Shown piece after piece: positions 7,008-57,200 of a stretch of DNA of 64,000 bases. The notes under the pieces were generated by a model that made no database searches, was not told where the DNA came from, and worked only from the letters and a program-made list of their open reading frames with translations. The stretch comes from Escherichia phage vB_EcoP_DE5. Numbering within the stretch: position 1 is the stretch's first letter; every line of letters starts with the position of its first letter. The stretch is from sequence record MW741821.1. One strand, given 5' to 3'. A program made the position numbers and the translations under genes.

Positions 7008-7283
7008 TTACTTATTGCTCAGGGCTGTGTCCAAAAATGCTTTCAGGTTTGCTTCAGTCTGCATACCGGAGAGACTGTAGTGTGCACCACTATTACGGTC
7101 AGGTACAACAAAAGCAGGGATGCTTCGTACACCATACTTAACAGCTTGTTCACGACCATCACCTTCAAGGATGTTAATCTCTTCCACTTCTACATCAAAC
7201 TCCTTAACAACCTTCTCAAAGGTAGGAGCCATTGCTTTACATGGAGCACACTGATCACTATAAAACTTAATTACTTTAGACAT
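7008..7283 (-). CDS. thioredoxin-like protein
   Basis: 91 aa with CAPC active-site-like motif. Confidence 0.7.
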   Translation of the reverse strand: MSKVIKFYSDQCAPCKAMAPTFEKVVKEFDVEVEEINILEGDGREQAVKYGVRSIPAFVVPDRNSGAHYSLSGMQTEANLKAFLDTALSNK

Positions 7284-7291
7284 GTAAATCC

Positions 7292-7471
7292 TTATGCAGT
7301 CAGGAGGTGAAGCAGGAATGGGATAACAACAGCTACGATAACCATGATGGTTGATGCTGTTTGAATCTCACCTTTCTTATCAGGAGTTTCTTCAATAAGC
7401 TTACCAGAAGCCCAATAAATACCACCACCAATAAAGATAGCCCAAATACCCCATACGATTGCTGATAACAT
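7292..7471 (-). CDS. small membrane protein
   Basis: 59 aa hand-translated (MLSAIVWGIWAIFIGGGIYW...), two hydrophobic segments; below track cutoff. Confidence 0.4.
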   Translation of the reverse strand: MLSAIVWGIWAIFIGGGIYWASGKLIEETPDKKGEIQTASTIMVIVAVVIPFLLHLLTA

Positions 7472-7532
7472 ATATCTATATCCTTATAAATAAGTTCGCC
7501 CCACCTCGGGTTAGGAGACAGGGCGGAGGTTT

Positions 7533-8144
7533 TTAGTAAGACACGTCACCACTTGAATGGGACATGTTGCTCTTGACGAAGTAGCAATACTTGCCAAGAC
7601 CTTCATTAATTTCTTGAAGCATACTCTGATCGACAGGGTAGGTGGCTAAATCACCATCAAACTCATCCATCTTCTCAATAATACACATCAAGGTCATGCA
7701 CATATCAGAGAGCATACCGTCCATGTCTAGATCAGCATTACCCTCTGAGAACCAAGCATGAGAGAGGTAGTTAGCTGCTGTAGCATCCACTTTAACACAG
7801 TGGTAACGCATACGTTCAGCAATACGATCTCCTACCTGTCGTGCGTAATCTTCCAGCTCATCAAACATACCATGAACACCCTGAAATCCTGCACCAGAGA
7901 CGTTCCAGTGGTAGTTTTTAGCTTTGATATGCAAGAGTTCCATGTTAGCTTGTAAGCAGCTCAGGATGTGTTCTAGGCTGTTTGCACTAATCATGCCTTG
8001 CATTGTTTCAAGGCGAGAGATTGAAAGCTCAGATCGGTCTAACATACTATAACTGTCACGACCAATCTCAGGTAAATCAAAGACATTCTTATGCATTTGG
8101 GTTTTCTCCATCAAGTTCAACTGAGTTAGCAACATTACGTGCAA
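7533..8144 (-). CDS. Dps/ferritin-like protein
   Basis: KAKNYHWNVSGAGFQGVHGMFDELEDYARQVGDRIAERMR resembles Dps KxxHWNxxGxxF..H...DE...D.IAER; true start may be internal. Confidence 0.55.
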   Translation of the reverse strand: MHVMLLTQLNLMEKTQMHKNVFDLPEIGRDSYSMLDRSELSISRLETMQGMISANSLEHILSCLQANMELLHIKAKNYHWNVSGAGFQGVHGMFDELEDYARQVGDRIAERMRYHCVKVDATAANYLSHAWFSEGNADLDMDGMLSDMCMTLMCIIEKMDEFDGDLATYPVDQSMLQEINEGLGKYCYFVKSNMSHSSGDVSY

Positions 8145-23701: not shown

Positions 23702-23728
23702 TTAAAAAAGGACTCTCCGAAAAGAGTC
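23702..23728 (-). terminator. Rho-independent terminator (minus strand)
   Basis: Hairpin GACUCU-UUUCGG-AGAGUC followed by CUUUUUU. Confidence 0.55.
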
Positions 23729-23920
23729 AAGCTTTAAATCCAAAAAAGATATTACCCAATATCTGTGGATAACCTGCTCTTAAAATATCTATCCGACGGA
23801 TGTTCGAGGAATATTCCTCTCTTTAGCATCGGCCCCATACGGGAAATATATTAAGATTAGGTTAGTTGAGTCAGAATAACTCACATAGCCCTCCGAAGAA
23901 GGCTATAGGCGTTACTACAA

Positions 23921-24139
23921 CTAAAAATCACCTGATTTTACAAAATCATCACTAAGAATTTCGTCAATCTCTTTGCCGGTCAAATCTTTCCTGAACCAGC
24001 AACAAGGAACATTCACCCATTGACCAGAGTTGTTCTCTACAGAGCATAGATTCCCTGTCTTACTCTTGCATTTATAAGATTTTCCTTTATCTAGGCGATA
24101 GTGTAATCTGTAAACTACAGACACAAGTGTTATCATCAC
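23921..24139 (-). CDS. hypothetical protein
   Basis: 72 aa ORF. Confidence 0.4.
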   Translation of the reverse strand: MMITLVSVVYRLHYRLDKGKSYKCKSKTGNLCSVENNSGQWVNVPCCWFRKDLTGKEIDEILSDDFVKSGDF

Positions 24140-24369
24140 TCACCTTTCTTAGCACGATCTTTGGCAGTTTTGCCAGTGCGGATGCGATGAGAAACGTTAA
24201 CCAGAGTGCCACCATCAACTACGGTAACGCTCTTATTTTTAGCCAGATCAAACACAGTCTTCTCTGTACCACCCAAGCGAATTTGCTTAGGTTCGCTGAA
24301 GGTTTGGGTTGATTTGGATTGGAACTGAAACGGTTGACGGATTGCATCGATTGCGCTTACTTTAGACAT
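24136..24369 (-). CDS. hypothetical protein
   Basis: 77 aa; AAGGAA SD. Confidence 0.45.
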   Translation of the reverse strand: MSKVSAIDAIRQPFQFQSKSTQTFSEPKQIRLGGTEKTVFDLAKNKSVTVVDGGTLVNVSHRIRTGKTAKDRAKKGE

Positions 24370-24383
24370 AGGGGAAATTCCTT

Positions 24384-24419
24384 AAAAAATTATGGCTGCG
24401 TAGAGGGAATTCCCTACGC
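24384..24419 (-). terminator. hairpin plus U-tract (terminator-like) after conserved element
   Basis: GCGUAGGGAAUUCCCUCUACGC hairpin then UUUUUU about 8 nt downstream. Confidence 0.4.
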
Positions 24420-24433
24420 AAATCGGGCCGCCC

Positions 24434-24462
24434 ACAGAGAGGCGTCATAGTACTAAAAGGAG
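24434..24462 (-). repeat. conserved 25-30 nt intergenic element (copy 1) containing TTTTAGTACTATGACGC
   Basis: Near-identical element at 31566-31597, each followed on the minus strand by a hairpin/U-tract. Confidence 0.5.
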
Positions 24463-24601
24463 GAGAGAAGAGGGCTTATTTAGCTACCTTTTTCTGTCCG
24501 TTTACGAACCAGATAATTGAACCGTCAGGCTGTCGTTGACCGAAGCCTTTCTGGTTAATCATATCGTCATAAGAATATGCTTTACGTCTCATTTGTTTTC
24601 C

Positions 24602-24856
24602 CTACGAAGTTAAGATGATTTCAGCCTTAATAAACTTCTCACCAACAACCATATCACCAGAGATGACACGTAGTTCTCCAGTGCCTAGGTTAACAGCTCC
24701 AGCAGGTTGACAACCCCTGCTTTTAGCTGTCATCATATAAACCTTTTGATTTTGGCACTCTTGGAGAGTGAACACATCTGACATATTTAGATCTCTGACG
24801 CGGAGGATTTTTTCCTCTTTGTCTTTAACTTTAATGTTAATAATGCTCATATGCAC
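24602..24856 (-). CDS. small protein, paralog family member
   Basis: 84 aa; tandem array, N-terminal K-rich segment followed by L..L..GDVF-like motif. Confidence 0.5.
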   Translation of the reverse strand: MHMSIINIKVKDKEEKILRVRDLNMSDVFTLQECQNQKVYMMTAKSRGCQPAGAVNLGTGELRVISGDMVVGEKFIKAEIILTS

Positions 24857-25101
24857 TACTCCTGAACCACTGACATACGAATCATTTCTACCTGATCATC
24901 AAGACCTTTAACAGATAACATACCTGTGGAAAGGTTTACCACAGGAACCCAACCACTGGCTATACGGATGTTACCAGAAGCATTTTCAACCCTCATGTAA
25001 TACTGAGGAGAGGCACTTCCGTTCTGAACCACGAAAGGGTTTCCGGGAATGATTGTTTCCAATCGTACCGTATTATCCTTTTTCTTTGGGATGATTTTCA
25101 T
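24856..25101 (-). CDS. small protein, paralog family member
   Basis: 81 aa; MKIIPKKKDNTVRLETIIPGNPF. Confidence 0.5.
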   Translation of the reverse strand: MKIIPKKKDNTVRLETIIPGNPFVVQNGSASPQYYMRVENASGNIRIASGWVPVVNLSTGMLSVKGLDDQVEMIRMSVVQE

Positions 25102-25349
25102 TGCGTATTATCCACCAAAAGTTCTGCTGATACAGGAACAACTCGGCACCAGATAGAAGGTGCTGTTACGTTACCATCGGATAGACGAAGAGTAATTGTT
25201 CGATCAGAGTTAACGGTTACATTAGGACTTTCAGACACAGACCCTTTAACATAGAGAGTAGCACTCTCAGGGAATTTAAACACTGCTCCGCTGGGGAGGG
25301 AGTTGAGATCAATCGTGGTCACTTCTTCTTTCTTGTGGGTAATCTTCAT
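25098..25349 (-). CDS. small protein, paralog family member
   Basis: 83 aa; MKITHKKEEVTTIDLNSLPSGAVF. Confidence 0.5.
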   Translation of the reverse strand: MKITHKKEEVTTIDLNSLPSGAVFKFPESATLYVKGSVSESPNVTVNSDRTITLRLSDGNVTAPSIWCRVVPVSAELLVDNTQ

Positions 25350-25600
25350 TTAGAATCCTTAATAACGTTAGCTTCAACCTTAACAGGAATAACAGAGATG
25401 CCCTCAACGGGGCCACTTAAGTGTCCATCTTCCAGTCTGACACACACGACTCGATCTCGTGCAACTTCTACCCAATTAGTAGATGCCGCAGTACAGACCA
25501 TATGAATTGGACCGTTCTCTTCCAGCCGGAAGGTATCGCCCTTCTTCAGAGTGTGGAGTTTCACAGTCTTGATAGTTTTGTTCAATTCGTTAACTTTCAT
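25346..25600 (-). CDS. small protein, paralog family member
   Basis: 84 aa; MKVNELNKTIKTVKLHTLKKGDTF. Confidence 0.5.
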   Translation of the reverse strand: MKVNELNKTIKTVKLHTLKKGDTFRLEENGPIHMVCTAASTNWVEVARDRVVCVRLEDGHLSGPVEGISVIPVKVEANVIKDSK

Positions 25601-25608
25601 ATTGATTC

Positions 25609-25920
25609 CTATTTAAGTTTGAGGCTAATGTTAAGGTGCATACATGCTCTGTTCTGTACAGCAGCATAACTTCTACCGAGCATGTCAGCCATTCTCTGAA
25701 TAGACATGAACCCAGCATTACGGATAAGGAACTGGTCCTCTTCTTCAGACCATTTAACTCGGATTGAAGCTCTTGATATGCCGAATTTAGTGCAAGCTGT
25801 GTTAACAGCATTCTCCGTTACATTCATAATCTGAGCTACTTCTTGAACCGAGTACTCTTTGATTAGTCTCCGAAGATTTTCAATCTGCATCGGAGTCCAT
25901 ATAGTTCTTCGTGCTTTCAT
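25609..25920 (-). CDS. DNA-binding protein with two tandem Myb/SANT-like helix-turn-helix repeats
   Basis: 103 aa; two W-[TS]-x-E-E-D...L repeats (RRTIWTPMQIENLRRL... and VKWSEEEDQFLIRNAG...). Confidence 0.5.
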   Translation of the reverse strand: MKARRTIWTPMQIENLRRLIKEYSVQEVAQIMNVTENAVNTACTKFGISRASIRVKWSEEEDQFLIRNAGFMSIQRMADMLGRSYAAVQNRACMHLNISLKLK

Positions 25921-26415
25921 ACATCCTCCAATTAATTGTTAAAACTATCAGGGGAGAACACTAGCTCTGGGCCACGCTGTAGATATTGGCCTACCTTCCA
26001 CAGCTAATCAGCTAATATACTCCCCTAATAGTTTATGAATAGGGGGAGGGGACGAATCCTCCCTTATCCTATTAGTTAATATTGCATGTAAGATCTAACA
26101 ATCGGTTGCCTTTGTAGGAATAAGCGTAAAGCCAATCCAGCACTAAACTCCCGCCCCCTTAGTGGGCTGGGTTATTAAAGGGTAACGCCCTTATGGGCTA
26201 GTTACATGAATGTTAGTTTGATAGGAGATCTGAAGTCCTATCTCAAAGGACTCTCGTAAGAATCCTTCACGATATTACTTATTCATCTCTCGTCGGCTAT
26301 CTCTCCAAGCCAACCAAGTGTAGGTTTTCAGTTCTTCAAAGTCTTCTGGAGAGAATAGATACTCTTTGAAGGTGTTCCCAAACCACTCTAAAAATTCTTC
26401 AGTCATAAGATTCTC

Positions 26416-26589
26416 TTAACAAGATTGGTCACACGGCTGATCACCACATGTTTTACAGATCACTGGTGAGTAACTACAGGCAGGATAAACAGACACCCCA
26501 TCAAACGTCTCACATCCACAATCAGGACATGTACCGTTGGATTCCATGTCATCATCGTCATCTACTTCACCGCCACCAAAACAACTCAT
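26416..26589 (-). CDS. small acidic Cys-rich protein
   Basis: 57 aa hand-translated (MSCFGGGEVDDDDDMESNGTCPDCGC...), AAGGAG SD; below track cutoff. Confidence 0.4.
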   Translation of the reverse strand: MSCFGGGEVDDDDDMESNGTCPDCGCETFDGVSVYPACSYSPVICKTCGDQPCDQSC

Positions 26590-26598
26590 ACAGGCTCC

Positions 26599-26820
26599 TT
26601 AGTAAACTAAACCTGTAGCCTTTGCATCAGGCTGAGGGACTACTTTTGCACTAGGGCGATAGCCATCCACTGAGCCGTTCCAAAGATTGACACAGGTGAT
26701 ATATCCATCGTCTATGATGTCTGTTTTAATCCAGAAGTGTTTATCATGACCAAAAATACTTCCGTTTGGCAGCGTGGACAATTCAACAGTTTTAAGTGAC
26801 TGCTTAGAGTCTAGTTTCAT
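26599..26820 (-). CDS. small protein, paralog family member
   Basis: 73 aa; MKLDSKQSLKTVELSTLPNGSIF. Confidence 0.5.
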   Translation of the reverse strand: MKLDSKQSLKTVELSTLPNGSIFGHDKHFWIKTDIIDDGYITCVNLWNGSVDGYRPSAKVVPQPDAKATGLVY

Positions 26821-26829
26821 ATAAGTTCC

Positions 26830-27027
26830 TTAATATACCAAACCATGTAAAAGAAACATCCTCTTTGTAAGCTCTGCTTTAGCTCTGTAATAAGCCTTAG
26901 AACCTAACAGGCGGCTCTTAACAAAGAACTTAATGTCATTGCTAACATCTTGTATTAAACGCTCCTGTACAGTTTCTGAGGAGTTATTAATCGAATCAAT
27001 TAACACCTTTGTAGATGTGTAATTCAT
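26830..27027 (-). CDS. hypothetical protein
   Basis: Track ORF 26830-27219 trimmed to internal Met with AAGGAG SD (65 aa). Confidence 0.4.
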   Translation of the reverse strand: MNYTSTKVLIDSINNSSETVQERLIQDVSNDIKFFVKSRLLGSKAYYRAKAELTKRMFLLHGLVY

Positions 27028-27028
27028 A

Positions 27029-27328
27029 TCACCACTCCTTACCGGTTGTAATCGTAGAGCCACCACACCACAATGCTGTATCAATAACAACATTATCCGG
27101 TGTAGACTTCTCTTCGTTGATAGAAGGGTTAGCATTAGAACAGGTTGCTCCGTTCCATCGCATATCAATTTCACCAGAAGGAATCTTCTCACCCTTATGC
27201 CAGCGAGAAACACAAACACCTTCCACTGCTACTGCACACCATCCATCAGGACGGCTCTGTACGCAGCCTGTAAGGGCTATGCAGACAAGGAAGATACAGA
27301 TTAAGGATATTACACCACCCCAACTCAT
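27029..27328 (-). CDS. predicted lipoprotein
   Basis: 99 aa; signal peptide with lipobox ALTGC; AGGAGGT SD. Confidence 0.6.
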   Translation of the reverse strand: MSWGGVISLICIFLVCIALTGCVQSRPDGWCAVAVEGVCVSRWHKGEKIPSGEIDMRWNGATCSNANPSINEEKSTPDNVVIDTALWCGGSTITTGKEW

Positions 27329-27348
27329 AATTACCTCCTATTAGATTT

Positions 27349-27440
27349 GGTGGACTATCTGGAATCGAACCAGAAGCTCACTAAGAAAGTAATTCCCACT
27401 GTTATAAAAGCACTTGCCTCAACAGGGATACACTAACTCT
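27349..27440 (-). other. tRNA-like element (T-arm present; full cloverleaf not resolved)
   Basis: Minus-strand UCUGG-UUCGAUU-CCAGA T-arm followed by UAGUCCA-CCA, but no matching 5' acceptor strand found by hand. Confidence 0.3.
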
Positions 27441-27468
27441 GGTGCCGCACCCATACTAGCCCTAAATG

Positions 27469-27544
27469 TGGTGCGCCCTACAGGACTCGAACCTGTAACC
27501 AATAGCTTAGAAGGCTACTGCTCTATCCATTGAGCTAAGAGCGC
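27469..27544 (-). tRNA. tRNA-Arg (anticodon TCT)
   Basis: Hand-folded: acceptor GCGCTCT/AGGGCGC, D-arm GCTC-AATGGATA-GAGC, anticodon stem GTAGC/GCTAT with loop CTTCTAA, T-arm ACAGG-TTCGAGT-CCTGT, discriminator A, encoded CCA. Confidence 0.85.
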
Positions 27545-27719
27545 AGAATTATTTAGATCATATCTCGCTTGGTGATATGACCACATGTTTTACATCGAAG
27601 TATATAACGAGTACCTGTGTCTTCTATTTGACCAATCTCATTATATATGTGTAAACGAACTTCTTTTATTGTCTCCCAATCATGCAGATGGAATAGACGT
27701 TTAAACCACTTGAACATAA

Positions 27720-27953
27720 TTACACCACCTCAACGAGAGATGTTTTCCATGCAAACAGAGGTCCATTATCGTTAAGATAAACAGCTCCTCCCGTCTCGAA
27801 CGGAGTCCCATAAGGAAGTGCCCAAGCATACCCACGAATTTCTGGCTTATGGGTAAACCCATATACCTCGCCGTTGCTATCAGTTGCTAAATATCTTATA
27901 GAGCTGTCCACTTTAACAACTTCGCCAAAATATTTAACCTCTTTTCCTTTCAT
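27720..27953 (-). CDS. hypothetical protein
   Basis: Track ORF trimmed to MKGKEVKYF Met with GAGG SD. Confidence 0.45.
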   Translation of the reverse strand: MKGKEVKYFGEVVKVDSSIRYLATDSNGEVYGFTHKPEIRGYAWALPYGTPFETGGAVYLNDNGPLFAWKTSLVEVV

Positions 27954-27960
27954 ATTAACC

Positions 27961-28212
27961 TCAAGCACAAGCAGGGAGTGTGATGATTTTATGCTTACCA
28001 TCAAATTCTCCAAATAAACCTAAGAATGTGGGACTGTAAGTTCCAGTACAAACAAACTCATCAAACAATGCGTTATAACTAGGCTTGATCTTCCAAGCCC
28101 ATACATAACCCATCTTGTCAATTGCAATGTAACGAGTGTTCAGAGGAACAGTCATCATTATACCATCAACTTCGATCACTTTAGTGATTGGTGCAGCTTG
28201 GAAGTTTTTCAT
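27961..28212 (-). CDS. hypothetical protein
   Basis: 83 aa ORF. Confidence 0.45.
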   Translation of the reverse strand: MKNFQAAPITKVIEVDGIMMTVPLNTRYIAIDKMGYVWAWKIKPSYNALFDEFVCTGTYSPTFLGLFGEFDGKHKIITLPACA

Positions 28213-28385
28213 ACTTTACCTTTGATAAAAATGTCATTACCACAGACACAGCATGAACGAACAACAGTAGCGCCACGCTGAACAATACGAACCTCTTCCT
28301 TAACCAGACTAATACGAGCACCGCAGCAAGGAGAGTTGACATAAGAGTAACCAGCTTGCGTATGTTTGATTATTTGCTTAGACAT
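28209..28385 (-). CDS. small zinc-ribbon protein
   Basis: 58 aa hand-translated (…SPCCGAR…SCCVCGN…); ATGA overlap with downstream gene. Confidence 0.4.
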   Translation of the reverse strand: MSKQIIKHTQAGYSYVNSPCCGARISLVKEEVRIVQRGATVVRSCCVCGNDIFIKGKV

Positions 28386-28731
28386 TTGATTCTAGATCTC
28401 TTAGTTGTTCAGCCAATTGTTCGCATTCATTAACGCAGAACTCTTCTGTTCTTGGTATCCCGTTAGGGTTGAACCGTGTCTTATCACCTGCATGGGCACA
28501 ATCAAATCCGATTGTATCTAAACCACCCATCTCTTCAAGGGTGTCTTGCCATGTGACACCACCATGAACACTTACATAACAAACCTCTTCCTTTCCGTTA
28601 TATCCGGTGAAGTTTTTATGTTTTAAGCTGTCTGGTAGCTCTACATATCCACAAAAATGGGAGTCGTTCATGTGCATAATCACAGCACGAAGACCTGATT
28701 TAGTGACCCAATCTTTAACCATGCGTCTCAT
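28378..28731 (-). CDS. hypothetical protein
   Basis: Track ORF trimmed to MRRMVKDW Met with GGTG SD (117 aa). Confidence 0.45.
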   Translation of the reverse strand: MRRMVKDWVTKSGLRAVIMHMNDSHFCGYVELPDSLKHKNFTGYNGKEEVCYVSVHGGVTWQDTLEEMGGLDTIGFDCAHAGDKTRFNPNGIPRTEEFCVNECEQLAEQLRDLESNV

Positions 28732-28769
28732 ATAAGCACCTCTTGTTAGTTTAAGTAAGAGTTGTCCCT

Positions 28770-28803
28770 TAATTAAAACAACAAAGGCCACCCGAAGGCA
28801 GCC
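28770..28803 (-). terminator. Rho-independent terminator (possibly bidirectional)
   Basis: Hairpin GGCUGCC-UUCG-GGUGGCC with U-rich tracts on both sides. Confidence 0.55.
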
Positions 28804-29311
28804 TTTTATTTATTAACTGTTATACGTCCAATTACCTTGCTTGTTACGGATGGCTGACATTGCATGAATCCAAAAGCCTTCCAGTTTCAGAGCACCATTA
28901 GCTACTGCATCCATACGTTCAGGGCGGTTCATACGTTTGGTTGATACTTTCATACCTATCTCTCTTTGTTAGTGGAGGCATTATTGCCAGTTGATATAAG
29001 GGATAGCCCTAGTCAGTAGACTAACCCTGACCGCGTACTCATTGCCGACCTTCTCTGCCTAAGAGTTCAGGTTCTAGAGCTATCTCTTATTCCAACTGGT
29101 GAAGACTCCCTACCCCTAGGAAGTCTCCTGAATCCCAAACCAATACGTACCCCTACATATCGGAAAGTCTTTCGAAAATTAACAGGTTTTAGTCTAACAC
29201 CGGATGTTCGAGCAAGCTCTCCCTAGCGGTGTGGCATATGCCTGAATTAATAAGTTAATGAGGAACACCCTCACATAGCCCTCTGATAAACACAAGGGCT
29301 ATAAGTCGGTG

Positions 29312-29530
29312 TTACTTTTGGGATAAACACAGATCAGGTCGTGGCATAACAGTGGTTGATAGACCGAAGACTTCAACAGAACCACTGCTCAAGTTAGCAG
29401 CCTTACACAAACCATCAGGGGTTTTATCTTCTAGCATCAGCCAGAAACGTTTATCATAAGAGAAAACATCACCACCTTTAACGTCCTCTGCATTTGCATA
29501 TTTAGGATAATCAACTACTTTAATTTCCAT
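29312..29530 (-). CDS. small protein, paralog family member
   Basis: 72 aa; ...AEDVKGGDVFSYDKRFW. Confidence 0.5.
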   Translation of the reverse strand: MEIKVVDYPKYANAEDVKGGDVFSYDKRFWLMLEDKTPDGLCKAANLSSGSVEVFGLSTTVMPRPDLCLSQK

Positions 29531-29540
29531 CTAATTGCCC

Positions 29541-29759
29541 TTATTGATATATAGAAAGGTGGATAAGTTTATTAACATGAGCGAAGTTAGGAAGGATTTG
29601 CATCTCATTGTTGAAGATATTAAAACAACGAACCCCGCCCTCTACAGCATAAGCAGATTTCTGAAACAGACTGCCTCCCCACACAAATACATCATGTGTT
29701 TCAAGAGATCGTAACTGAACAGCCTCGTCAACAACCTTCTTTTCAATGTTCATATTCAC
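29541..29759 (-). CDS. small protein, paralog family member
   Basis: 72 aa; ...LRSLETHDVF. Confidence 0.5.
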   Translation of the reverse strand: MNMNIEKKVVDEAVQLRSLETHDVFVWGGSLFQKSAYAVEGGVRCFNIFNNEMQILPNFAHVNKLIHLSIYQ

Positions 29760-30007
29760 TTCCGATTGGTAATTACTGCATCATGGATAACTGAAACAGG
29801 TAAGTTTGAATCTAGCTTCATTACTTGATTGGTGCTTAAACTGAGCACTACACAACCATTCCGAAGATCAGTCTCTGACACATGTGGTGTATATAACTGA
29901 ACGATCATGTAATAATCAATACATGTTGCCTTAACTTGGAATACATCACCAAGTTTCAAATCACCCACACACAATTCTTTAGCTTTCATCTCAAGATCAA
30001 TCTTCAT
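29756..30007 (-). CDS. small protein, paralog family member
   Basis: 83 aa; ...VGDLKLGDVFQV. Confidence 0.5.
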   Translation of the reverse strand: MKIDLEMKAKELCVGDLKLGDVFQVKATCIDYYMIVQLYTPHVSETDLRNGCVVLSLSTNQVMKLDSNLPVSVIHDAVITNRK

Positions 30008-30233
30008 CTTTAGCCTCTATGTTGGTTATGTGAAGATCACTACGTACTTGGCAGACTTCATCCCGTTTAAAAGGCATGAGCTTTCCAGTTACCACATCAA
30101 CACAGTTGACATAATTGTCTGCGTACAATGTGTCGGTTCTGATGTAAAGGGATTCTTTACGCTCAAACAGAACCCCCGGCTTCATGTTATTTAAGCGAAG
30201 CATTGTACGATCGGATTTAATATTAACTTTCAT
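29997..30233 (-). CDS. small protein, paralog family member
   Basis: 78 aa; ...LNNMKPGVLFER. Confidence 0.5.
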   Translation of the reverse strand: MKVNIKSDRTMLRLNNMKPGVLFERKESLYIRTDTLYADNYVNCVDVVTGKLMPFKRDEVCQVRSDLHITNIEAKDED

Positions 30234-30235
30234 CT

Positions 30236-30493
30236 TTAATCCACCTTATTGGTAAGTCGAGCATTATCAACTACCTGAACAACAGTATCTTTTCTCAACA
30301 TTGTTATTCTATCCGAAGTGAGATCTACTACTACTCTTTCGTCAGGCTTCCAACTAGCTGAATAAACGGTTGAGGAATCTAGCTTTACTGTAAGATATAT
30401 TTTATTTTTAGGTGGAACAGTTTCAAAAACACTCCCCACCTTCAGGTCTTTCAGTTGCTTGACTACAGGGGCTGTATTAATATCATGCTTCAT
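30236..30493 (-). CDS. small protein, paralog family member
   Basis: Trimmed to MKHDINT Met with AGGAG SD; ...LKDLKVGSVFETV. Confidence 0.5.
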   Translation of the reverse strand: MKHDINTAPVVKQLKDLKVGSVFETVPPKNKIYLTVKLDSSTVYSASWKPDERVVVDLTSDRITMLRKDTVVQVVDNARLTNKVD

Positions 30494-30779
30494 TGTTAAT
30501 CTCCTGCTGTTTAGCAATAGCCACTCGCAAGTCTTCATTAGCACGAGCAAGGCGTAACACTTCGTGGTTGAGGTTCTGAAGACGCTTGTTTCTGTCCTCT
30601 ACTTGCATAATAAGATCATTAAGTGTTACTTTAACTTTCTCATTATACATCTCATCCACTCGAACTAGGGATTTATACATTCTCTCCCAGCTTGCTGCTT
30701 TGTTTCTGAGAATAATAAATCCTAGAACGCTGATAGTTAAACAGCTTACAAAAAGGAATTTATATACTTCTAAAGTCAT
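30483..30779 (-). CDS. membrane-anchored coiled-coil protein
   Basis: 98 aa; N-terminal hydrophobic helix then heptad-like charged region. Confidence 0.45.
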   Translation of the reverse strand: MTLEVYKFLFVSCLTISVLGFIILRNKAASWERMYKSLVRVDEMYNEKVKVTLNDLIMQVEDRNKRLQNLNHEVLRLARANEDLRVAIAKQQEINNEA

Positions 30780-30978
30780 ATTATTTACCCTTTATCAGAG
30801 ATTAAAAGTAATATTATTTAAGTAAGTTATATTTAGTAAACTTATTTTCTAAGAAATTTTCAAAGGGTCTATATACAGAGCATTACCCATAGTCCCAGAA
30901 TACTGCCATCTTTTTCAATAAATTTACTAAGTGGTTGGTTTATAAAGGAATTTAGTTTGTCAAATCTGGCACTAGTGA

Positions 30979-31368
30979 TTATTCCCTAGAGCTATTATCG
31001 AACACTAAATCACCACAATACATAGGATTGGCATACCATTTTGGCACCCCTTCGCTCTTACTCTGAAAGTAAGTCCCACTGTACAGCGGAACATAATTCT
31101 TCTTAAGGGCACGTTTAGCTAGCCTCTCGCTTTCTCCAATGGCTTGCTTAGTCATCGGATTTTTATCACGAATCAGCTTTACATAACGTTTATAAGGTTT
31201 CTCCTGTTTTAATAGTACCGGAATCCACTCAAACTGGTTCTTTTGTCTTATCACCTGTTCAGCGGTCAGTTTTCGTTGGGCCATTCTATTTATCACGGTA
31301 TCCGCAACTAAAGCCTTACATGCGGTTGGCTGATTCCCTGCCTCATAATAAATAGTCAATGTCAACAT
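30979..31368 (-). CDS. cell wall hydrolase (SleB-like)
   Basis: 129 aa; EAGNQPTACKALVADTVINR resembles the conserved N-terminal block of SleB-type hydrolases. Confidence 0.55.
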   Translation of the reverse strand: MLTLTIYYEAGNQPTACKALVADTVINRMAQRKLTAEQVIRQKNQFEWIPVLLKQEKPYKRYVKLIRDKNPMTKQAIGESERLAKRALKKNYVPLYSGTYFQSKSEGVPKWYANPMYCGDLVFDNSSRE

Positions 31369-31502
31369 TAGCTGTGCCGTTGTTATCAGAACTTGATACC
31401 TCCTGTTTTACGGGCATAAAAAAGCCCCAGCCGTAGCCGGGGCAAACCTGAAAGCAACACATGACCGTTGCTATAAATACACTCGCAAATGCACTTACAG
31501 CA

Positions 31503-31528
31503 ACGCAAAAAGCCGCTCAAAGGCGGCT
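31503..31528 (-). terminator. Rho-independent terminator (minus strand)
   Basis: Hairpin AGCCGCC-UUUGA-GCGGCU followed by UUUUUG. Confidence 0.55.
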
Positions 31529-31565
31529 ATGCGGAAGCTTCAAATGGGGAGAGGGCACGACGCGA

Positions 31566-31597
31566 CAGAAAGAGCGTCATAGTACTAAAAAGAGAGG
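31566..31597 (-). repeat. conserved 25-30 nt intergenic element (copy 2) containing TTTTAGTACTATGACGC
   Basis: Matches 24434-24462 with a few transitions; followed on the minus strand by terminator 31503-31528. Confidence 0.5.
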
Positions 31598-31758
31598 CTA
31601 TTGGAGAGGTTACTTATTGCCTTCCTTAATGCCTTGTTTTCTTGTTTAACCAATTCGTTTTCTTCTTGCAAGGATGCTACCAGATGGACCAGAACATCAA
31701 CTACTGCATCACCTTGCCGCATCTCTCTGACTTTATTTAGAATCTCTGAATAAATCAT
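31585..31758 (-). CDS. small hypothetical protein
   Basis: 57 aa hand-translated (MIYSEILNKVREMRQ...); ATGA overlap with upstream gene stop. Confidence 0.35.
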   Translation of the reverse strand: MIYSEILNKVREMRQGDAVVDVLVHLVASLQEENELVKQENKALRKAISNLSNSLSF

Positions 31759-32198
31759 TTTACCCTCGCCTCTTTGATGGGGTCGATGTATTTCTCAACG
31801 CCCCACTTGTGTTTACTATCTGCGTAGAAAACATCAGGTGCACATTGGCTTGTTTTAGGGAAGGCTTGCGGGTCTTTCGTGCTCCCCTTAAACTTCTGTT
31901 TACCTCGAGTGCGACCATTACAGAAGATTTCTAACTTCTTCTCCTCTTCTGTTTTAGCTCCCCCGCTCTGTAACAAAGAACGTTTATGATCAGCTAACAA
32001 CAACGCATCAGCCCGATGGACACGATGGCCTACACGTTTTGCCACACTGGAAGGAACATGGGATTCAGCCTCAGCCTTTGCAGCACGACGTTTTAAACTA
32101 CGCTTACTAACGTGATTAGTTGCCTTCGGTTTCTCTTTCTCCAGTTCAGAGATAGAAAAACAACGCCCGCCCTTCATGCTGATTTTTGATTTAGCCAC
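31755..32198 (-). CDS. basic hypothetical protein
   Basis: 147 aa, Lys/Arg-rich. Confidence 0.5.
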   Translation of the reverse strand: MAKSKISMKGGRCFSISELEKEKPKATNHVSKRSLKRRAAKAEAESHVPSSVAKRVGHRVHRADALLLADHKRSLLQSGGAKTEEEKKLEIFCNGRTRGKQKFKGSTKDPQAFPKTSQCAPDVFYADSKHKWGVEKYIDPIKEARVK

Positions 32199-32267
32199 AA
32201 TCTTATTCCTTTCAGTGATAAGTTATATCGGGCAAGCCCATCAAGTCGATAGGCTTGAACAAATAAC

Positions 32268-32477
32268 TTAATCAAGTAAACTAAATGACTTCCAACTGCG
32301 TAGCAGGATTGTACCATCATCCATAACTACACTTAATTGCAATAGTTTTTTGTTGCAACTACTCACCGTTGTAATTCGTCCGGTTGTACTTTTACCTTTA
32401 TTGCTGTAAAGATATACAACACGACGGCCTAACAAGCGGGAAGGTGCTTTCTTAAATGCTGAAATGTTAGTGATCAT
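32268..32477 (-). CDS. hypothetical protein
   Basis: 69 aa; ATGA coupling with upstream ORF. Confidence 0.4.
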   Translation of the reverse strand: MITNISAFKKAPSRLLGRRVVYLYSNKGKSTTGRITTVSSCNKKLLQLSVVMDDGTILLRSWKSFSLLD

Positions 32478-32698
32478 AATGCTTGATACCTTTGAATGTG
32501 TTCAATACGGGTGGATTGAGCAAATGACGCTTTAACAGCCATTTTCCTAACTTCTTCTTTACGCTGGTTAGTGTGTACAGTATCCCAATGATTGTTATCA
32601 CGTTGGCGCTGTAATATCTTACTACATTTGCGATGGTTTCCCGTGCTGCGATGTTTCTCACAAATAGGACACTTGCCAAAATTACTACTGAATATCAT
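32474..32698 (-). CDS. small zinc-finger protein
   Basis: 74 aa; CPICEKH...HRKC. Confidence 0.4.
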   Translation of the reverse strand: MIFSSNFGKCPICEKHRSTGNHRKCSKILQRQRDNNHWDTVHTNQRKEEVRKMAVKASFAQSTRIEHIQRYQAL

Positions 32699-32922
32699 TT
32701 TCTCAATCCCAGCTTTCTTAAGATACGGCCTAACGTTGTTTCTTGCGTGATAATATAGCTGATCGCTTCACGTTCCAATGTTTCAATCTTCATTGGCGAC
32801 GGATACCATTCACCGGTAATAACACATTTACATTCAACGCCATACTTTTTAGATAGGCGGTAATGTTGACCGTTGACAAGATTTCTATAAATCGTGGTAT
32901 GTGTAATTAACATGATCGTCAC
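32695..32922 (-). CDS. hypothetical protein
   Basis: 75 aa ORF. Confidence 0.4.
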   Translation of the reverse strand: MTIMLITHTTIYRNLVNGQHYRLSKKYGVECKCVITGEWYPSPMKIETLEREAISYIITQETTLGRILRKLGLRK

Positions 32923-32965
32923 CTTTGATTAGATTCTTTGATTAATGCACTGAATCAATGCACTG

Positions 32966-33000
32966 ATAAAAGAAAAGGCGCTACCCGTTAAGATAGCGCC
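32966..33000 (-). terminator. Rho-independent terminator (minus strand)
   Basis: Hairpin GGCGCUA-loop-UAGCGCC followed by UUUUCUUUUAU. Confidence 0.55.
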
Positions 33001-34747: not shown

Positions 34748-35372
34748 TTAAAGAGCGGTAAATCTATCAGTGTGCTTTCTCACACTATGCAACTGTTAGC
34801 CGTTGTTACGCTTTTCACTGAAGCGATGATTTGCTTAGTGAGTGCTCATTATGAATCATGTTGTTTTCGCTGTCAACCGCTTTTTAATCTTTTTTCGTCG
34901 TTCCCGCTATTGGGAGGATATATCAATCAGCTTTATTTGATTGAAGATTAAGCGGTGAGGCTTAACTTATGACTCATATTGTTAAAGAGCGTTTAGCCTT
35001 TTAAAGTGTCTGCTAATCACTGTCACATTGAAGGCTTACTGATTCATTAACAGGCCGCCTACACCTGAACTAATCGCTGCACTATGTGCCACCTTTCCCG
35101 CGATACGTTGATTTGGGAACTAGTTAGCGATGTTTTGCTAACTTGTGGTTAGTATGGACTACTTTAACCACGTTTGCAACTCTTTTTATCATCTTCTTTT
35201 AATTCCTTTCCCTTATCTCGCGTGAATCTATGCGAAAGGGCAAGATGATAAGTTTTTAAAGAGCGGGATTTTTTAAGTCATCGCTGACTATGCTCACTAT
35301 ATATCAGGCTTTTTCTGGTGTCAATACTCTTTTTAAGTATTTTCACTTTCTAGCCTGATTTTTAAAGAGCGG
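34748..35372. repeat. four dispersed copies of TTAAAGAGCG(G) within an ORF-free region
   Basis: Copies at 34748-34758, 34982-34991, 35246-35256, 35362-35372; no ORF of 60 aa or more between 33950 and 35700 except one short frame. Confidence 0.55.
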
Positions 35373-37207: not shown

Positions 37208-37421
37208 TTCGTTATTCCTTAGATAGATTCAATCAACTGTCATCAACTATATAATAAAGGAAAAGGCTGTCAACCATCTATTTTCTAACTTTCTTGCATC
37301 CTCCTGAAAACTAAAGGAATTTAATTTGCTAAACTTTCCATACTCAGAGAATCAGCTTACTTCTTATTGTTACTTTATAACACTACGGGTAACAGACCAA
37401 CAGACCAGGACAAACGGGGAT

Positions 37422-54243: not shown

Positions 54244-57200
54244 ATGGCGCTGTATCCAATAAAGTCGCTAGGTGCTGTAGGCGTTATCGCTGATCAGGCT
54301 CCGACAGACTTAGCTCCTAATGCTTTCACTAATGCTATAAATGCTCGATTTGTTGAGCAGAGAGTCTTTAAGACGGGGGGCAATGCCCCTCTTTCTTATG
54401 TAGATGAAGATAAGGATTTAACCCCTCTGTCTTTCGTTTCTATGCCTTTCGATTATTATAGCGCAGGTAATAGCTTTCTTGTTGTAGGTACAAATAAGAA
54501 GTTATATAAACTGACAGATGAAAGCTTGACTGATATTAGCCGTAAGGTTGCTACAGTCACTAAGAAGGCTTCTGCCTCAATTAAGATTTATCCAGTTGTT
54601 TCTCAGATCGTTCCTAAAGAATCAACTATCTCAATGAACTTCAATCAGACCAAGAATCTAGAGGTTTCTCTTCTCCCTGCTGATGCTAATAATACTGATC
54701 TTATTTGGGAGGTTAGTAACTCAGCCTATGGAAGTATTACGGTAGACCCTAGTGACTCTAAACTTGCTACTCTAACATCTTTTGAGAAAGAGGGTAATCT
54801 TGTAGTAACTATCTCTACTGCCAATGAATCCGTAGTGGCTCAGATTGCTGTTAATATCATAGATGGTGATTCAGGCATCTTCTTGAGTCAAGATACTGTT
54901 ACAATTCGTAAGGGAGGGACTACTACTCTCACGGCTGTTACTGGCAAGACTCCTGTAACTTGGTCCAGCAGTAACGCTTCTATTGTATCCGTAACTCCTA
55001 ACGCCAACTCTTTAACTGCTGTCATTACAGCGAATGGAGAAGGTAATGTAACAATCACTGCTGACAACGGAACTAAGACTGCTTCTTGTGAGATTGTTTC
55101 TATCCCTCAGATTGATAGTATCTCTTTAAGCCAGTCAGATGTTACTGTGAGTAGAGGTTCTCAGTATATCTTAACTGCTACCCTTTCTCCTGCTAACGCC
55201 CCTAATCAAAATATTACTTGGACCTCTTCTAATCCAAATATTGCAACAGTATCAGGGACTAGCACACAAGGGACGATCAACGCTCTACTTGCTGGTTTTA
55301 CTGAGATTACAGCTACCACTGAAGAAGGTAACAGAGTTGCTGTCTGTACTGTACGTGTGGACTTAGCTGGAAGGACAATGAGAACAAGTGCTATGGCATT
55401 TGCCGCTCCTGTATCAGAGTCAGTAGAAACTCAAGAGGAAGAAGTAGTAACTCCTCCTGAAAGTGAAGAGACGGTTTATTTTGCTGAGCCTACATCCGGT
55501 ATTGATACGTCAGGGATGTACGAAGGTAATAACTTCTATGACTACTCTAACGTGAATGACATTGAAGGTTTTGCAAGAGCTTCTTTACTGGCAACCCCTT
55601 TGTCATCTGTAACCTTAGATGTTGTCAGCGCCTCACTTGATGTTGGTGAAGAGATTGTTATCACAGCTACAGCTTCTCCAGAAGGTGATTATTCTTATCA
55701 GTGGTCTGTTGATAAGACTGGTTATGTTTCTACAACTTCAGTCACTGGTAAATCTATCAAACTGGTTGCTCTTCGTAAAGGAGAGATTAACGTAACATGT
55801 ACTGTCAGTCAGATGACTCAGAAGGATTACGATGCTTTTGATGATTATCCTTGGTATCACGCTGTTATCTCTAACTGTGCAGTTGCTACAACTCACTATG
55901 AAACTCCTCAGGTAAAAGAATTCGAATCAGAATACTTTGTAGATCTTCCGGGATGGGGTGAGCAAACAGTTGTCGATAATGACGGGAACCCTTCAGTCAA
56001 GAAGTTTAACTGGAAATGTGAAAGAGTAAGATCTTTTAACAACCGTCTTTTTGCTCTAAACATGAGAGAGGCTAACGCTTCTGGTGTTACCACTAACTAC
56101 CCGCTTCGTCTTCGTTGGTCTAACTTTGCCAATGAGAATAAGGCTCCTACACTGTGGGATGACTTTGCCTATGATCGAGTTGTGTCTTCGGACTTAGCTT
56201 CTAACATCGTAGGGCAGACTCAGGCTCTAGAGAATGGATATGCTGGTTACATTGACCTAGCCGATTCTAATGGTAGCTTGATTGATATCCTACCTCTTAA
56301 AGACTACTTGTTCGTTTATACAGAGTTTGAAACGTATATTGGTTCTCCGACTAATAACACGTACCAACCTCTAATGTTCAAGAAGCTCTTTAACGACTCT
56401 GGTATCCTCGCTCCCGAGTGTGTGGTTGAAGTAGAAGGTAGTCACTTCGTAGTTACTCAGAACGATGTAATCTTACACAATGGTGCAACCAAGAAGTCAA
56501 TTGCATCTAACCGTGTTAAGAACATGCTGATTAATGAGGTGTGTCTGGTTAACCCTCTAGCAACTCGAGTACACTTGCATCAGGATAAGAAAGAAGTTTG
56601 GGTTCTGTACGTAGGTCCGGGAGAACCAAAAGAAAGCTTCGCTTGTACTAAAGCTGCTGTATGGAATTATGAGTTTGATACTTGGTCTTTCCGTACTATC
56701 CCATATGCTCAGTGTATTGGTCTGGTTGATCCTCCTGTTTTAGAAAGAGGTCCAATCTGGTCTGACTTCCAAGAAATCACTTGGGATGACCCATCTATTA
56801 AAGAACTCGTTTGGAGAAAGGATGCAACAAACTTTAGACAGAGGGTTACGATAGTAGGTTCATTCTTGAAGGGATTCTATCAAGTGGATGTAGGTGCTCT
56901 TGATTACTTCTATGACAGGCTAAATGATGTTGTTATAGAGAAGCCTCTGGAAATGAGGTTAGAGAGGACTGGTATAGATTTTGATAATGTGACGAATGAG
57001 TGGAATCAGAAGCATATTAACAGATTCCGACCTCAGACAACTGGCTCGGGTACTTACATATTTGAAGCTGGTGGTAGTCAATTCTCAAATGAATATGGAC
57101 ACCCACACACATCTAAGACATATACGATCGGTGTTGACAGGCACGTCTCGGTGAGACTGAACCATCCATACCTTTTCTATAATGTTATAGATAATGATGT

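Follow-up and report, generated by a model that had tools for sequence, protein, structure and literature searches.

What is the role of two short sequence blocks that recur together in two intergenic regions of Escherichia phage vB_EcoP_DE5? We addressed this question in a 64,000-nucleotide (nt) stretch of the phage genome (sequence record MW741821.1; hereafter, the window), following up a sequence-only reading that had proposed a duplicated regulatory or structured RNA element. By its sequence, the window is that of a phiEco32-like podophage (Kuravirus), and the Escherichia phages SkaterBoy_Bas90, phiEc_1, and others share 97-100% identity with it. The two copies of the element, termed A and B, are located in the early leftward gene cluster, at the positions of phiEco32 genes 90/91 and 112/113, respectively. 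Because all genes around both copies are carried by the minus strand, the element was read on that (sense) strand; the plus-strand order proposed before is thereby reversed, with the hairpin coming first and the 12-mer second. The element is very probably a functional structured RNA module of the sense strand that consists of a hairpin (H1), an A/U-rich linker of 20-35 nt, and a 3' domain that represents an undescribed RNA motif. As to its function, we favor, at a probability of roughly 40% and by analogy with T7, a reading in which H1 would act as a ribonuclease III (RNase III) signal splitting the upstream gene cassettes from the downstream RNA, and the 3' domain would be a recognition fold governing the fate of that RNA.

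The repeat itself was confirmed by exact pattern counts. The 12-mer CGGATGTTCGAG occurs exactly twice on the plus strand (23797-23808 and 29201-29212), whereas only 0.11 matches with up to one mismatch are expected and none of 100 shuffles contained two or more. The 14-mer CTCACATAGCCCTC also occurs exactly twice (23880-23893 and 29270-29283), at spacings of 71 nt (copy A) and 57 nt (copy B) from the 12-mer, and is followed by GGCTATA (23901-23907 and 29298-29304), which completes a hairpin in both copies. The sequence-only reading had correctly recognized both exact pairs, the hairpin at the second block, and the location of each copy behind a small minus-strand gene, the stop codon of which directly precedes the element; its starts of the 12-mer (23802 and 29202) and of the 14-mer (23878 and 29268) were displaced by 1-5 nt. 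Similarity might have been confined to the two blocks; in an alignment of 12 copies it reaches well past them. A chance repeat is ruled out by the shuffle statistics and by the fact that both loci are conserved in further genera and families. The proposed co-duplication with paralogous gene arrays did not hold, as the proteins flanking copy A and those flanking copy B are unrelated. The parts of the two copies are as follows.

Copy A:
23874-23916, minus strand: H1, starting in the stop-codon cluster UAGUAAC and holding the 14-mer; by RNAalifold, lower stem AGUAAC/GUUAUU, small internal loop GC / UGA, upper stem CUAUAGCCUUC-UUCG-GAGGGCUAUG
23844-23873, minus strand: A/U-rich linker, including ACUAACCUAAUCUU, which is conserved from Kuravirus to phage 7-11
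23793-23843, minus strand: 3' domain, holding the 12-mer (23797-23808)
23834-23843, minus strand: hairpin H2, CCC-GUAU-GGG
23827-23832 and 23793-23798, minus strand: helix P3, 5' arm CCGAUG and 3' arm CGUCGG
23820-23826 and 23799-23805, minus strand: internal loop strands CUAAAGA and GAACAUC
23806-23819, minus strand: hairpin H4, GAGGA-AUAU-UCCUC

Copy B:
29264-29316, minus strand: H1, with AGUAAC including the stop codon of the upstream gene and holding the 14-mer (29270-29283); lower stem AACACC/GGUGUU, asymmetric internal loop GACU / GUGAG, upper stem UAUAGCCCU...AGGGCUAU
29243-29263, minus strand: A/U-rich linker, unrelated in sequence to that of copy A
29197-29242, minus strand: 3' domain, holding the 12-mer (29201-29212)
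29233-29242, minus strand: H2, GGC-AUAU-GCC
29227-29232 and 29197-29202, minus strand: P3, ACACCG / CGGUGU
29220-29226 and 29203-29209, minus strand: internal loop strands CUAGGGA and GAACAUC
29210-29219, minus strand: H4, GAG-CUUG-CUC

In the 3' domain, H2 (three G-C pairs closed by an RUAU loop) is separated by a single nucleotide from P3 (6-7 base pairs), which encloses a symmetric 7x7 internal loop, CUAGGG(A/C) / (G/A)AACAUC, and the short hairpin H4. A covariance model (R1) was built on this domain, and covariation was assessed on 31 distinct sequences. Within these, 96.7% of the pair cells were paired, compared to 30-47% in slid controls; both sides change in four of the six P3 pairs, and the observed level of covariation was reached by none of 500 shuffles. 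Compensatory changes are present in P3, H2, and H4 alike, which substantiates the earlier proposal of a structured RNA and adds to the hairpin a second, larger fold around the 12-mer. RNAalifold independently recovered H1, H2, P3, and H4 in the A-type and B-type copies, plus an additional helix, P0, in the A-type, and both intergenic RNAs fold far better than their shuffled versions (z = -5.0 and -4.6). One P3 pair is U.G in 20 of the 31 sequences, and several G.U wobbles are found in H1; the opposite strand would have C.A mismatches in place of U.G, which assigns the fold to the sense strand and thus to RNA. A search of the whole window with Rfam 15 at gathering thresholds returned tRNA-Arg as the only match, and no relevant match was obtained for either locus at E values up to 10. 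A degenerate tRNA was rejected as well, since ARAGORN and Rfam call only the tRNA-Arg gene at 27469-27544.

Within the internal loop of the 3' domain, nearly every nucleotide is fixed. Of its 14 positions, ten carry the same nucleotide throughout the 31 sequences and another two do so in 30 of 31; the terminal loop of H4 varies freely. The two positions flanking H4 covary in several separate lineages (A.G in 18 sequences, C.A in 11, A.A in two, and C.G in none), a pattern expected from base-pair isostericity for a sheared non-Watson-Crick pair. Small ribozymes typically combine an invariant internal loop with covarying helices and a terminal loop that is hypervariable, and the tandem G.A / A.G pairs beside H4 recall hammerheads. 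Nevertheless, the nucleotides that match the catalytic G5 and A6 differ, stem III is absent, and no Rfam ribozyme model, the hammerhead included, matched either locus at E values up to 10, so that we regard a self-cleaving ribozyme of a new or degenerate class as extremely unlikely.

Conservation of the element was assessed by R1 searches of individually retrieved loci. Both blocks are retained at both loci in phages phiEco32, LAMP, SU7, ECBP2, and 101114UKE3, the last three of which belong to Suseptimavirus, and the window, like every Kuravirus or Suseptimavirus locus, yielded exactly two copies with R1. A single A-type copy was identified in each of the Salmonella phages 7-11 and pSal-SNUABM-01 (family Grimontviridae). 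Only ~27-32% of open reading frames are homologous between phiEco32 and 7-11 (PMC8948821), and, among the comparisons run, the copy A intergenic stretch is the part of the query that still aligns between Kuravirus and 7-11 at the nucleotide level. More copies were found in metagenomic contigs, including a divergent phage contig (L053) that has one copy; there P3 is wholly different in sequence yet fully paired, and the layout of hairpin, A/U linker, and 3' domain is kept while the hairpin sequence differs. R1 revealed no further copies in the part of the closest genome outside the window, none in Cronobacter phage GAP52, and, when applied with no filters, no 3' domain in the early regions of K1-5 and T7. 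Scanning 185,579 species genomes for the exact core gave only chance matches, contig L057, which looks like mis-binned sequence of a phiEco32-type phage, and the divergent L053, which is labelled as a Flavobacterium genome bin; a host origin of the element was discarded on this basis. Three matches from the first pattern scan (L007, L011, and L016) were dismissed as G+C-rich chance matches.

The hairpin H1 begins in the conserved AGUAAC, which contains or follows the stop codon of the upstream gene. Its lower stem has 6-9 base pairs and is separated by a small asymmetric internal loop from the upper stem, UAUAGCC...GGCUAU, the top of which varies; on the sense strand, the 14-mer constitutes the 3' arm of H1. 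This layout is consistent between single-sequence folds of the 31 variants and RNAalifold, and is supported by the G.U wobbles and by compensatory changes such as ACACC/GGUGU to ACAUC/GAUGU. In a BLAST search with copy A, 38 nt of its H1 matched Vectrevirus phages, and over this length H1 is ~82% identical to the hairpin that K1-5/K1E-group phages carry in an early intergenic region. In phage AAPEc6, AAGTAACtagCCTATAGCCtgcctgagtGGGCTATGTGAtatttactt is located between the early genes gp05 and gp06, with its TAA again being a stop codon. AAGUAAC..CCUAUAGCC..GGGCUAUGUGA, a hairpin nearly identical to H1, separates early genes in 87 SP6/K1-5/K1E-like records, ~2-3 kilobases (kb) in where numbering starts at the conventional left end. 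No report of RNase III cleavage of that hairpin was found in the literature searched. These matches suggest a portable early-mRNA processing signal that may have moved between unrelated coliphages. We also folded five early positions of T7 that we take to be the RNase III sites R0.3-R1.3, which the RefSeq record leaves unannotated. Like H1, all five are built from a lower stem, an internal loop, and an upper stem, and inspection found no sequence similarity to H1. Most simply, H1 is thus a putative T7-type RNase III processing signal.

The mechanism that we favor places each copy as a cis-acting module within a long early transcript, which is made by host RNA polymerase, leftward from sigma-70 promoters ~5-13 kb upstream. 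H1 would fold right behind the upstream stop codon, and cleavage of its internal loop near GUGAG would give the upstream message a protective 3' hairpin and free the downstream RNA. After the A/U-rich linker, the 3' domain would fold as a recognition structure at the head of the downstream RNA and control the fate of that RNA either by binding a host or phage factor or by taking a tertiary fold. In the most economical version, it would block 5'-end-dependent decay after processing and thereby set the levels of the downstream genes, namely, gp90 onward past the copy A terminator and gp112 past copy B.

Several points weigh against this mechanism. RNase III has little sequence specificity, so the strong conservation of H1 across families may indicate that another factor of higher specificity recognizes it. 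Any stable hairpin would suffice as a decay roadblock, which leaves the 12 near-invariant loop nucleotides unexplained; a stabilizer role is therefore incomplete at best, and a specific partner or a tertiary or catalytic role appears likely. Moreover, the 20-30-nt single-stranded A/U-rich 5' extension that a cut in H1 would produce should invite RNase E. The terminator fixed behind every A-type copy suggests a link to termination of which the mechanism makes no use, and its position ~65 nt past the element in two families keeps a local role in termination control alive. Finally, no transcript or cleavage data for these phages were found in the literature searched. We consider it possible, if somewhat doubtful, that the 3' domain is a new functional class of RNA, either a regulator that binds polymerase or a protein (a mid-operon antiterminator, an attenuator sensor, or a host-factor decoy) or a small ribozyme, that is coupled to a processing hairpin and is exchanged among enterobacterial phage families.

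The linker could alternatively hold an internal sigma-70 promoter between H1 and H2, in which case the 3' domain would be the 5' leader of a new transcript. Promoter-like sequences are indeed present in copy A (CTGACT-18-TATATT), in the Suseptimavirus copy B (TATAAT), and in L053 (TTAACG-17-TATCAT). However, inspection showed that the -10 and -35 elements are not conserved across copies and lineages, and promoter-like matches in the region are fewer than in shuffles. The published promoters lie elsewhere: early promoters were reported only at the far right end of the genome (PMC4281155), and the promoters used by gp36, the sigma factor of the phage, precede genes 6, 13, 26, 40, 58, and 68 (PMC4281155, PMC8948821). 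We therefore judge an internal promoter very unlikely. The gp36 promoter sequence tAATGTAtA has no match within one mismatch in either copy and was rejected separately.

The organization of early transcription bears on whether the nascent 3' domain acts on RNA polymerase itself, either as a processive antiterminator like HK022 putL/putR or as a nut-like site for a phage protein. The put RNAs form two adjacent stem-loops with non-canonical G.A and C.A pairs and are present in two copies (PMC9378689), and the element likewise has two similar copies per genome, each with two stem-loops separated by a single nucleotide, the second of which contains G.A and C.A pairs of this kind. A strong intrinsic terminator lies within ~65 nt behind every A-type copy in the two phage families, and a terminator-like hairpin follows gp112 downstream of copy B. 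Early promoters were published only at the far right end (PMC4281155). According to the paper on phage 7-11, an antitermination strategy "remains to be defined" (PMC8948821). We identified three near-consensus sigma-70 promoters in the window, at 37273, 35324, and 34876 of the sense strand, each matching 11 of the 12 hexamer positions, and copy B is located ~5.5 kb downstream of the nearest strong promoter. Terminator-like sites numbered 25, compared to ~10 expected (two scans combined). Strong intrinsic terminators precede copy B at 33002-32975, 31528-31511, and 31443-31424, and others were found at 28806-28783, 24421-24396, and 23728-23711, the last being the copy A terminator. As these strong terminators lie within the early operon, downstream of its only strong promoters, early expression must involve read-through or antitermination. 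However, polymerase has to pass the first three terminators before it transcribes the element at all, which disfavors a put-like role and points to the promoter-proximal region instead.

That region contains four exact BoxA-like motifs GCTCTTTAA on the minus strand (34748-34756, 34982-34990, 35256-35264, and 35362-35370), which adjoin the promoters at 35324 and 34876 and are embedded in CGCUCUUUAA(A/C/U)AA. The window has five matches to GCTCTTTAA (the fifth is at 56385) compared to 0.86 expected, and none of 100 shuffles reached five. Judged from these sequence matches, the cluster suggests Nus-factor (NusB/NusE) antitermination of the early operon; no paper that names phiEco32 and boxA together was found in the literature searched. 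The four promoter-adjacent motifs are the likelier antitermination signals, and, in addition, the 7-11 copy lies ~19 kb from the validated early promoters of that phage, GAP52 has no copy, and R1 gave no match in either the immunity region of HK022 or the nutL region of P22-like phages. An antiterminator function of the 3' domain is hence unlikely.

Each copy is followed by additional structures of its own.

Copy A:
23859-23864 and 23851-23856, minus strand: 5' strand of helix P0, UAACCU and UCUUAA, formed by ACUAACCUAAUCUU
23764-23783, minus strand: 3' strand of P0, UUAAGA (23778-23783) and AGGUUA (23770-23775), overlapping a DnaA box
23764-23772, minus strand: perfect DnaA box TTATCCACA, between the 3' domain and the terminator
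23702-23728, minus strand: intrinsic terminator, GACUCUUUUCGGAGAGUC plus CUUUUUU, ~65 nt past the 3' domain

Copy B:
29140-29163, minus strand: hairpin H5, with UAGGGGUA in its loop
29101-29128, minus strand: hairpin H6, with UAGGGGUA in its loop
28987-29099, minus strand: long hairpin H7, with its apex at 29010-29076

In copy A, RNAalifold places H2 and P3-H4 within a three-way junction closed by P0 (UAACCU..UCUUAA with UUAAGA..AGGUUA). The complete arrangement of H1, junction, GGUUAUCCACAG, and terminator is conserved from Kuravirus to 7-11, and an intrinsic terminator follows every A-type copy, including that of 7-11. This arrangement is open to two further explanations. First, the element might be the precursor of a discrete trans-acting small RNA, a protein decoy or a base-pairing regulator, with copy A giving a product of ~180 nt from the cut in H1 to the intrinsic terminator and copy B a product bounded by H1 and the long downstream hairpin. 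Copy A offers a structured body, an A/U-rich stretch, UCCACAG as a conserved single-stranded segment, and a Rho-independent terminator that ends in a long run of U; the invariant loop would suit a protein-binding site, and UAGGG-type motifs recur in the loops of H5 and H6 of copy B. In contrast, copy B lacks an adjoining terminator, and no convincing separate promoter serves the downstream genes, which means that termination cannot be complete; the small RNA explanation accordingly seems improbable. Second, the copy A junction could be a riboswitch-like attenuator, in which an aptamer sensing a ligand or factor controls the terminator in front of the amidoligase / glutamine-amidotransferase cluster. 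A junction with an invariant core and a terminator does precede the same metabolic cluster in both Kuravirus and 7-11. Inspection, however, revealed only an unconvincing alternative antiterminator pairing of 4-5 nt complementarity, copy B and L053 share the core but have no adjacent terminator, and Rfam gave no match, which makes attenuation quite unlikely.

Conservation of the locus could also reflect a role of the DNA itself, as a replication origin or DnaA-dependent site or as a recombination anchor for swaps of early cassettes. The DnaA box TTATCCACA is kept beside every A-type copy in both families, including phage 7-11 (~19153-19161 of locus L018), and the stretch still aligns between the two families at the nucleotide level. 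In addition, the genes immediately 5' of the copies (from 23917 and 29317 upward) differ between otherwise collinear phages. In the loci compared (L002-L006, L009, L015, L024, L029, L041, and L043), at least eight different junction sequences abut the conserved AGTAAC, where homology breaks exactly, and phage LAMP lacks homologues of gp91-92 and gp113-115. These differences and the break at AGTAAC indicate that the element marks a boundary of cassette exchange, a hotspot of early gene replacement. Nevertheless, compensatory changes and strand-specific G.U pairs show that a folded single strand is under selection rather than duplex DNA, a DnaA box is absent from copy B, and GAP52 has no element. 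The first half of the DnaA box doubles as the 3' strand of P0, which accounts for half of the box, and either reading could thus explain its conservation. A DNA-level function as the explanation for the element is therefore rather remote.

In copy B only, the leader hairpins H5-H7 (28987-29163) precede a gene for a 46-amino-acid protein (28813-28953). The apex of H7 shows ~82% identity to an unannotated stretch of the P22-like Salmonella phages BTP1, SE1, and L, the counterpart of which (2501-2567 of locus L017) falls between nutL and the beginning of gene 24, the N gene. This apical segment is absent from the same hairpin in the Suseptimavirus SU7 and thus behaves as a small inserted RNA module that unrelated phages have in common. 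A role of gp112 as an N-like protein was rejected, as it has no similarity to P22-type N and the resemblance of the leaders comes from the lineage-specific apical insertion. The neighboring proteins gave no functional clues, with no match in Pfam and only families of unknown function in PHROGs; the "Q-like" annotation beside the gp112 homologue of 7-11 rests on a weak zinc-finger match.

Other intergenic stretches of the region also have distinctive sequences. A 354-nt gap on the minus strand (25921-26274) starts with AGUAAUAUC and a long hairpin right past a stop codon, and a 69-nt gap on the same strand (32199-32267) consists of one long irregular hairpin; from their predicted folds, both may be further processing signals of different sequence. 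Directly downstream of tRNA-Arg(UCU), at ~27340-27465 on the minus strand, there is a tRNA-like sequence with the T-arm CUGGUUCGAUUCCAGA and the 3' end ...GUCCACCA. It was called by neither ARAGORN nor Rfam and may be a degenerate or interrupted tRNA. In Salmonella phage 7-11, a 700-nt unannotated stretch behind the homologue of phiEco32 gp112 (7047-7757 of locus L018) holds the tRNA-like T-arms GGTTCGAATCC and GGTTCGACTCC.

Phages phiEco32 and 7-11 serve as models of how a phage controls the RNA polymerase of its host, and their early operons are long and terminator-studded. The element is a non-coding feature that is conserved at the nucleotide level across two families, has covariation support, and belongs to no described RNA family. 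Its function would add a layer of RNA processing, elongation control, or decoy RNA to the regulatory map of these phages and could yield a new recognition motif between RNA and a protein or RNA polymerase.

A comparison with known systems places the two parts of the element at different distances from described RNAs. A paper on the prophage small RNA svsR proved unrelated. The likeness of the 3' domain to the hammerhead is superficial: CUAGGGA-H4-GAAC..AUC resembles the core CUGANGA-stem II-GAAA..UH, whereas only two helices flank the loop of the element and the equivalents of G5 and A6 differ. The PeSL cassettes of T4-like phages are repeated promoter/stem-loop modules of the early region at breakpoints of gene-cassette shuffling. 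The element is similarly a repeated intergenic stem-loop module at cassette breakpoints, but differs in having a large covarying RNA fold and no conserved promoter. With respect to the nut sites of lambda and P22, the 3' domain of copy B lies upstream of the P22-like N-leader segment, which in P22-like phages is found just downstream of nutL; that segment is absent in Suseptimavirus. Unlike nut or the BoxA of rrn operons, which has the consensus CGCUCUUUA, neither copy of the element contains GCTCTTTAA, the BoxA motifs being located 5-6 kb upstream beside the early promoters. The HK022 putL and putR sites share with the element two related copies per genome of ~60-70 nt, adjacent stem-loops with G.A/C.A pairs, and a location in the early transcript before terminators (PMC9378689). 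In contrast to put, the first stem of the element has only 3 base pairs and its copies lie far from promoters, past strong terminators; R1 run without filters on HK022 positions 24000-33000, which include putL and putR, found nothing better than E = 9.5.

The counterparts of H1 are the RNase III sites of T7 (R0.3, R0.5, R1, R1.1, and R1.3) and the hairpin of its SP6/K1-5/K1E-like relatives. Like the T7 sites, H1 is intercistronic in an early transcript of the host polymerase, follows a stop codon, and has lower and upper stems that together span ~20 base pairs (about two helical turns) around a small asymmetric internal loop. It has no significant sequence similarity to these sites, and its cleavage is a prediction, whereas the SP6/K1-5/K1E-like relatives carry a near-identical hairpin at the equivalent early intergenic position. 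What distinguishes the element from all these T7-like phages is the second conserved domain, which is absent there and is coupled to H1 in the phiEco32-like phages.

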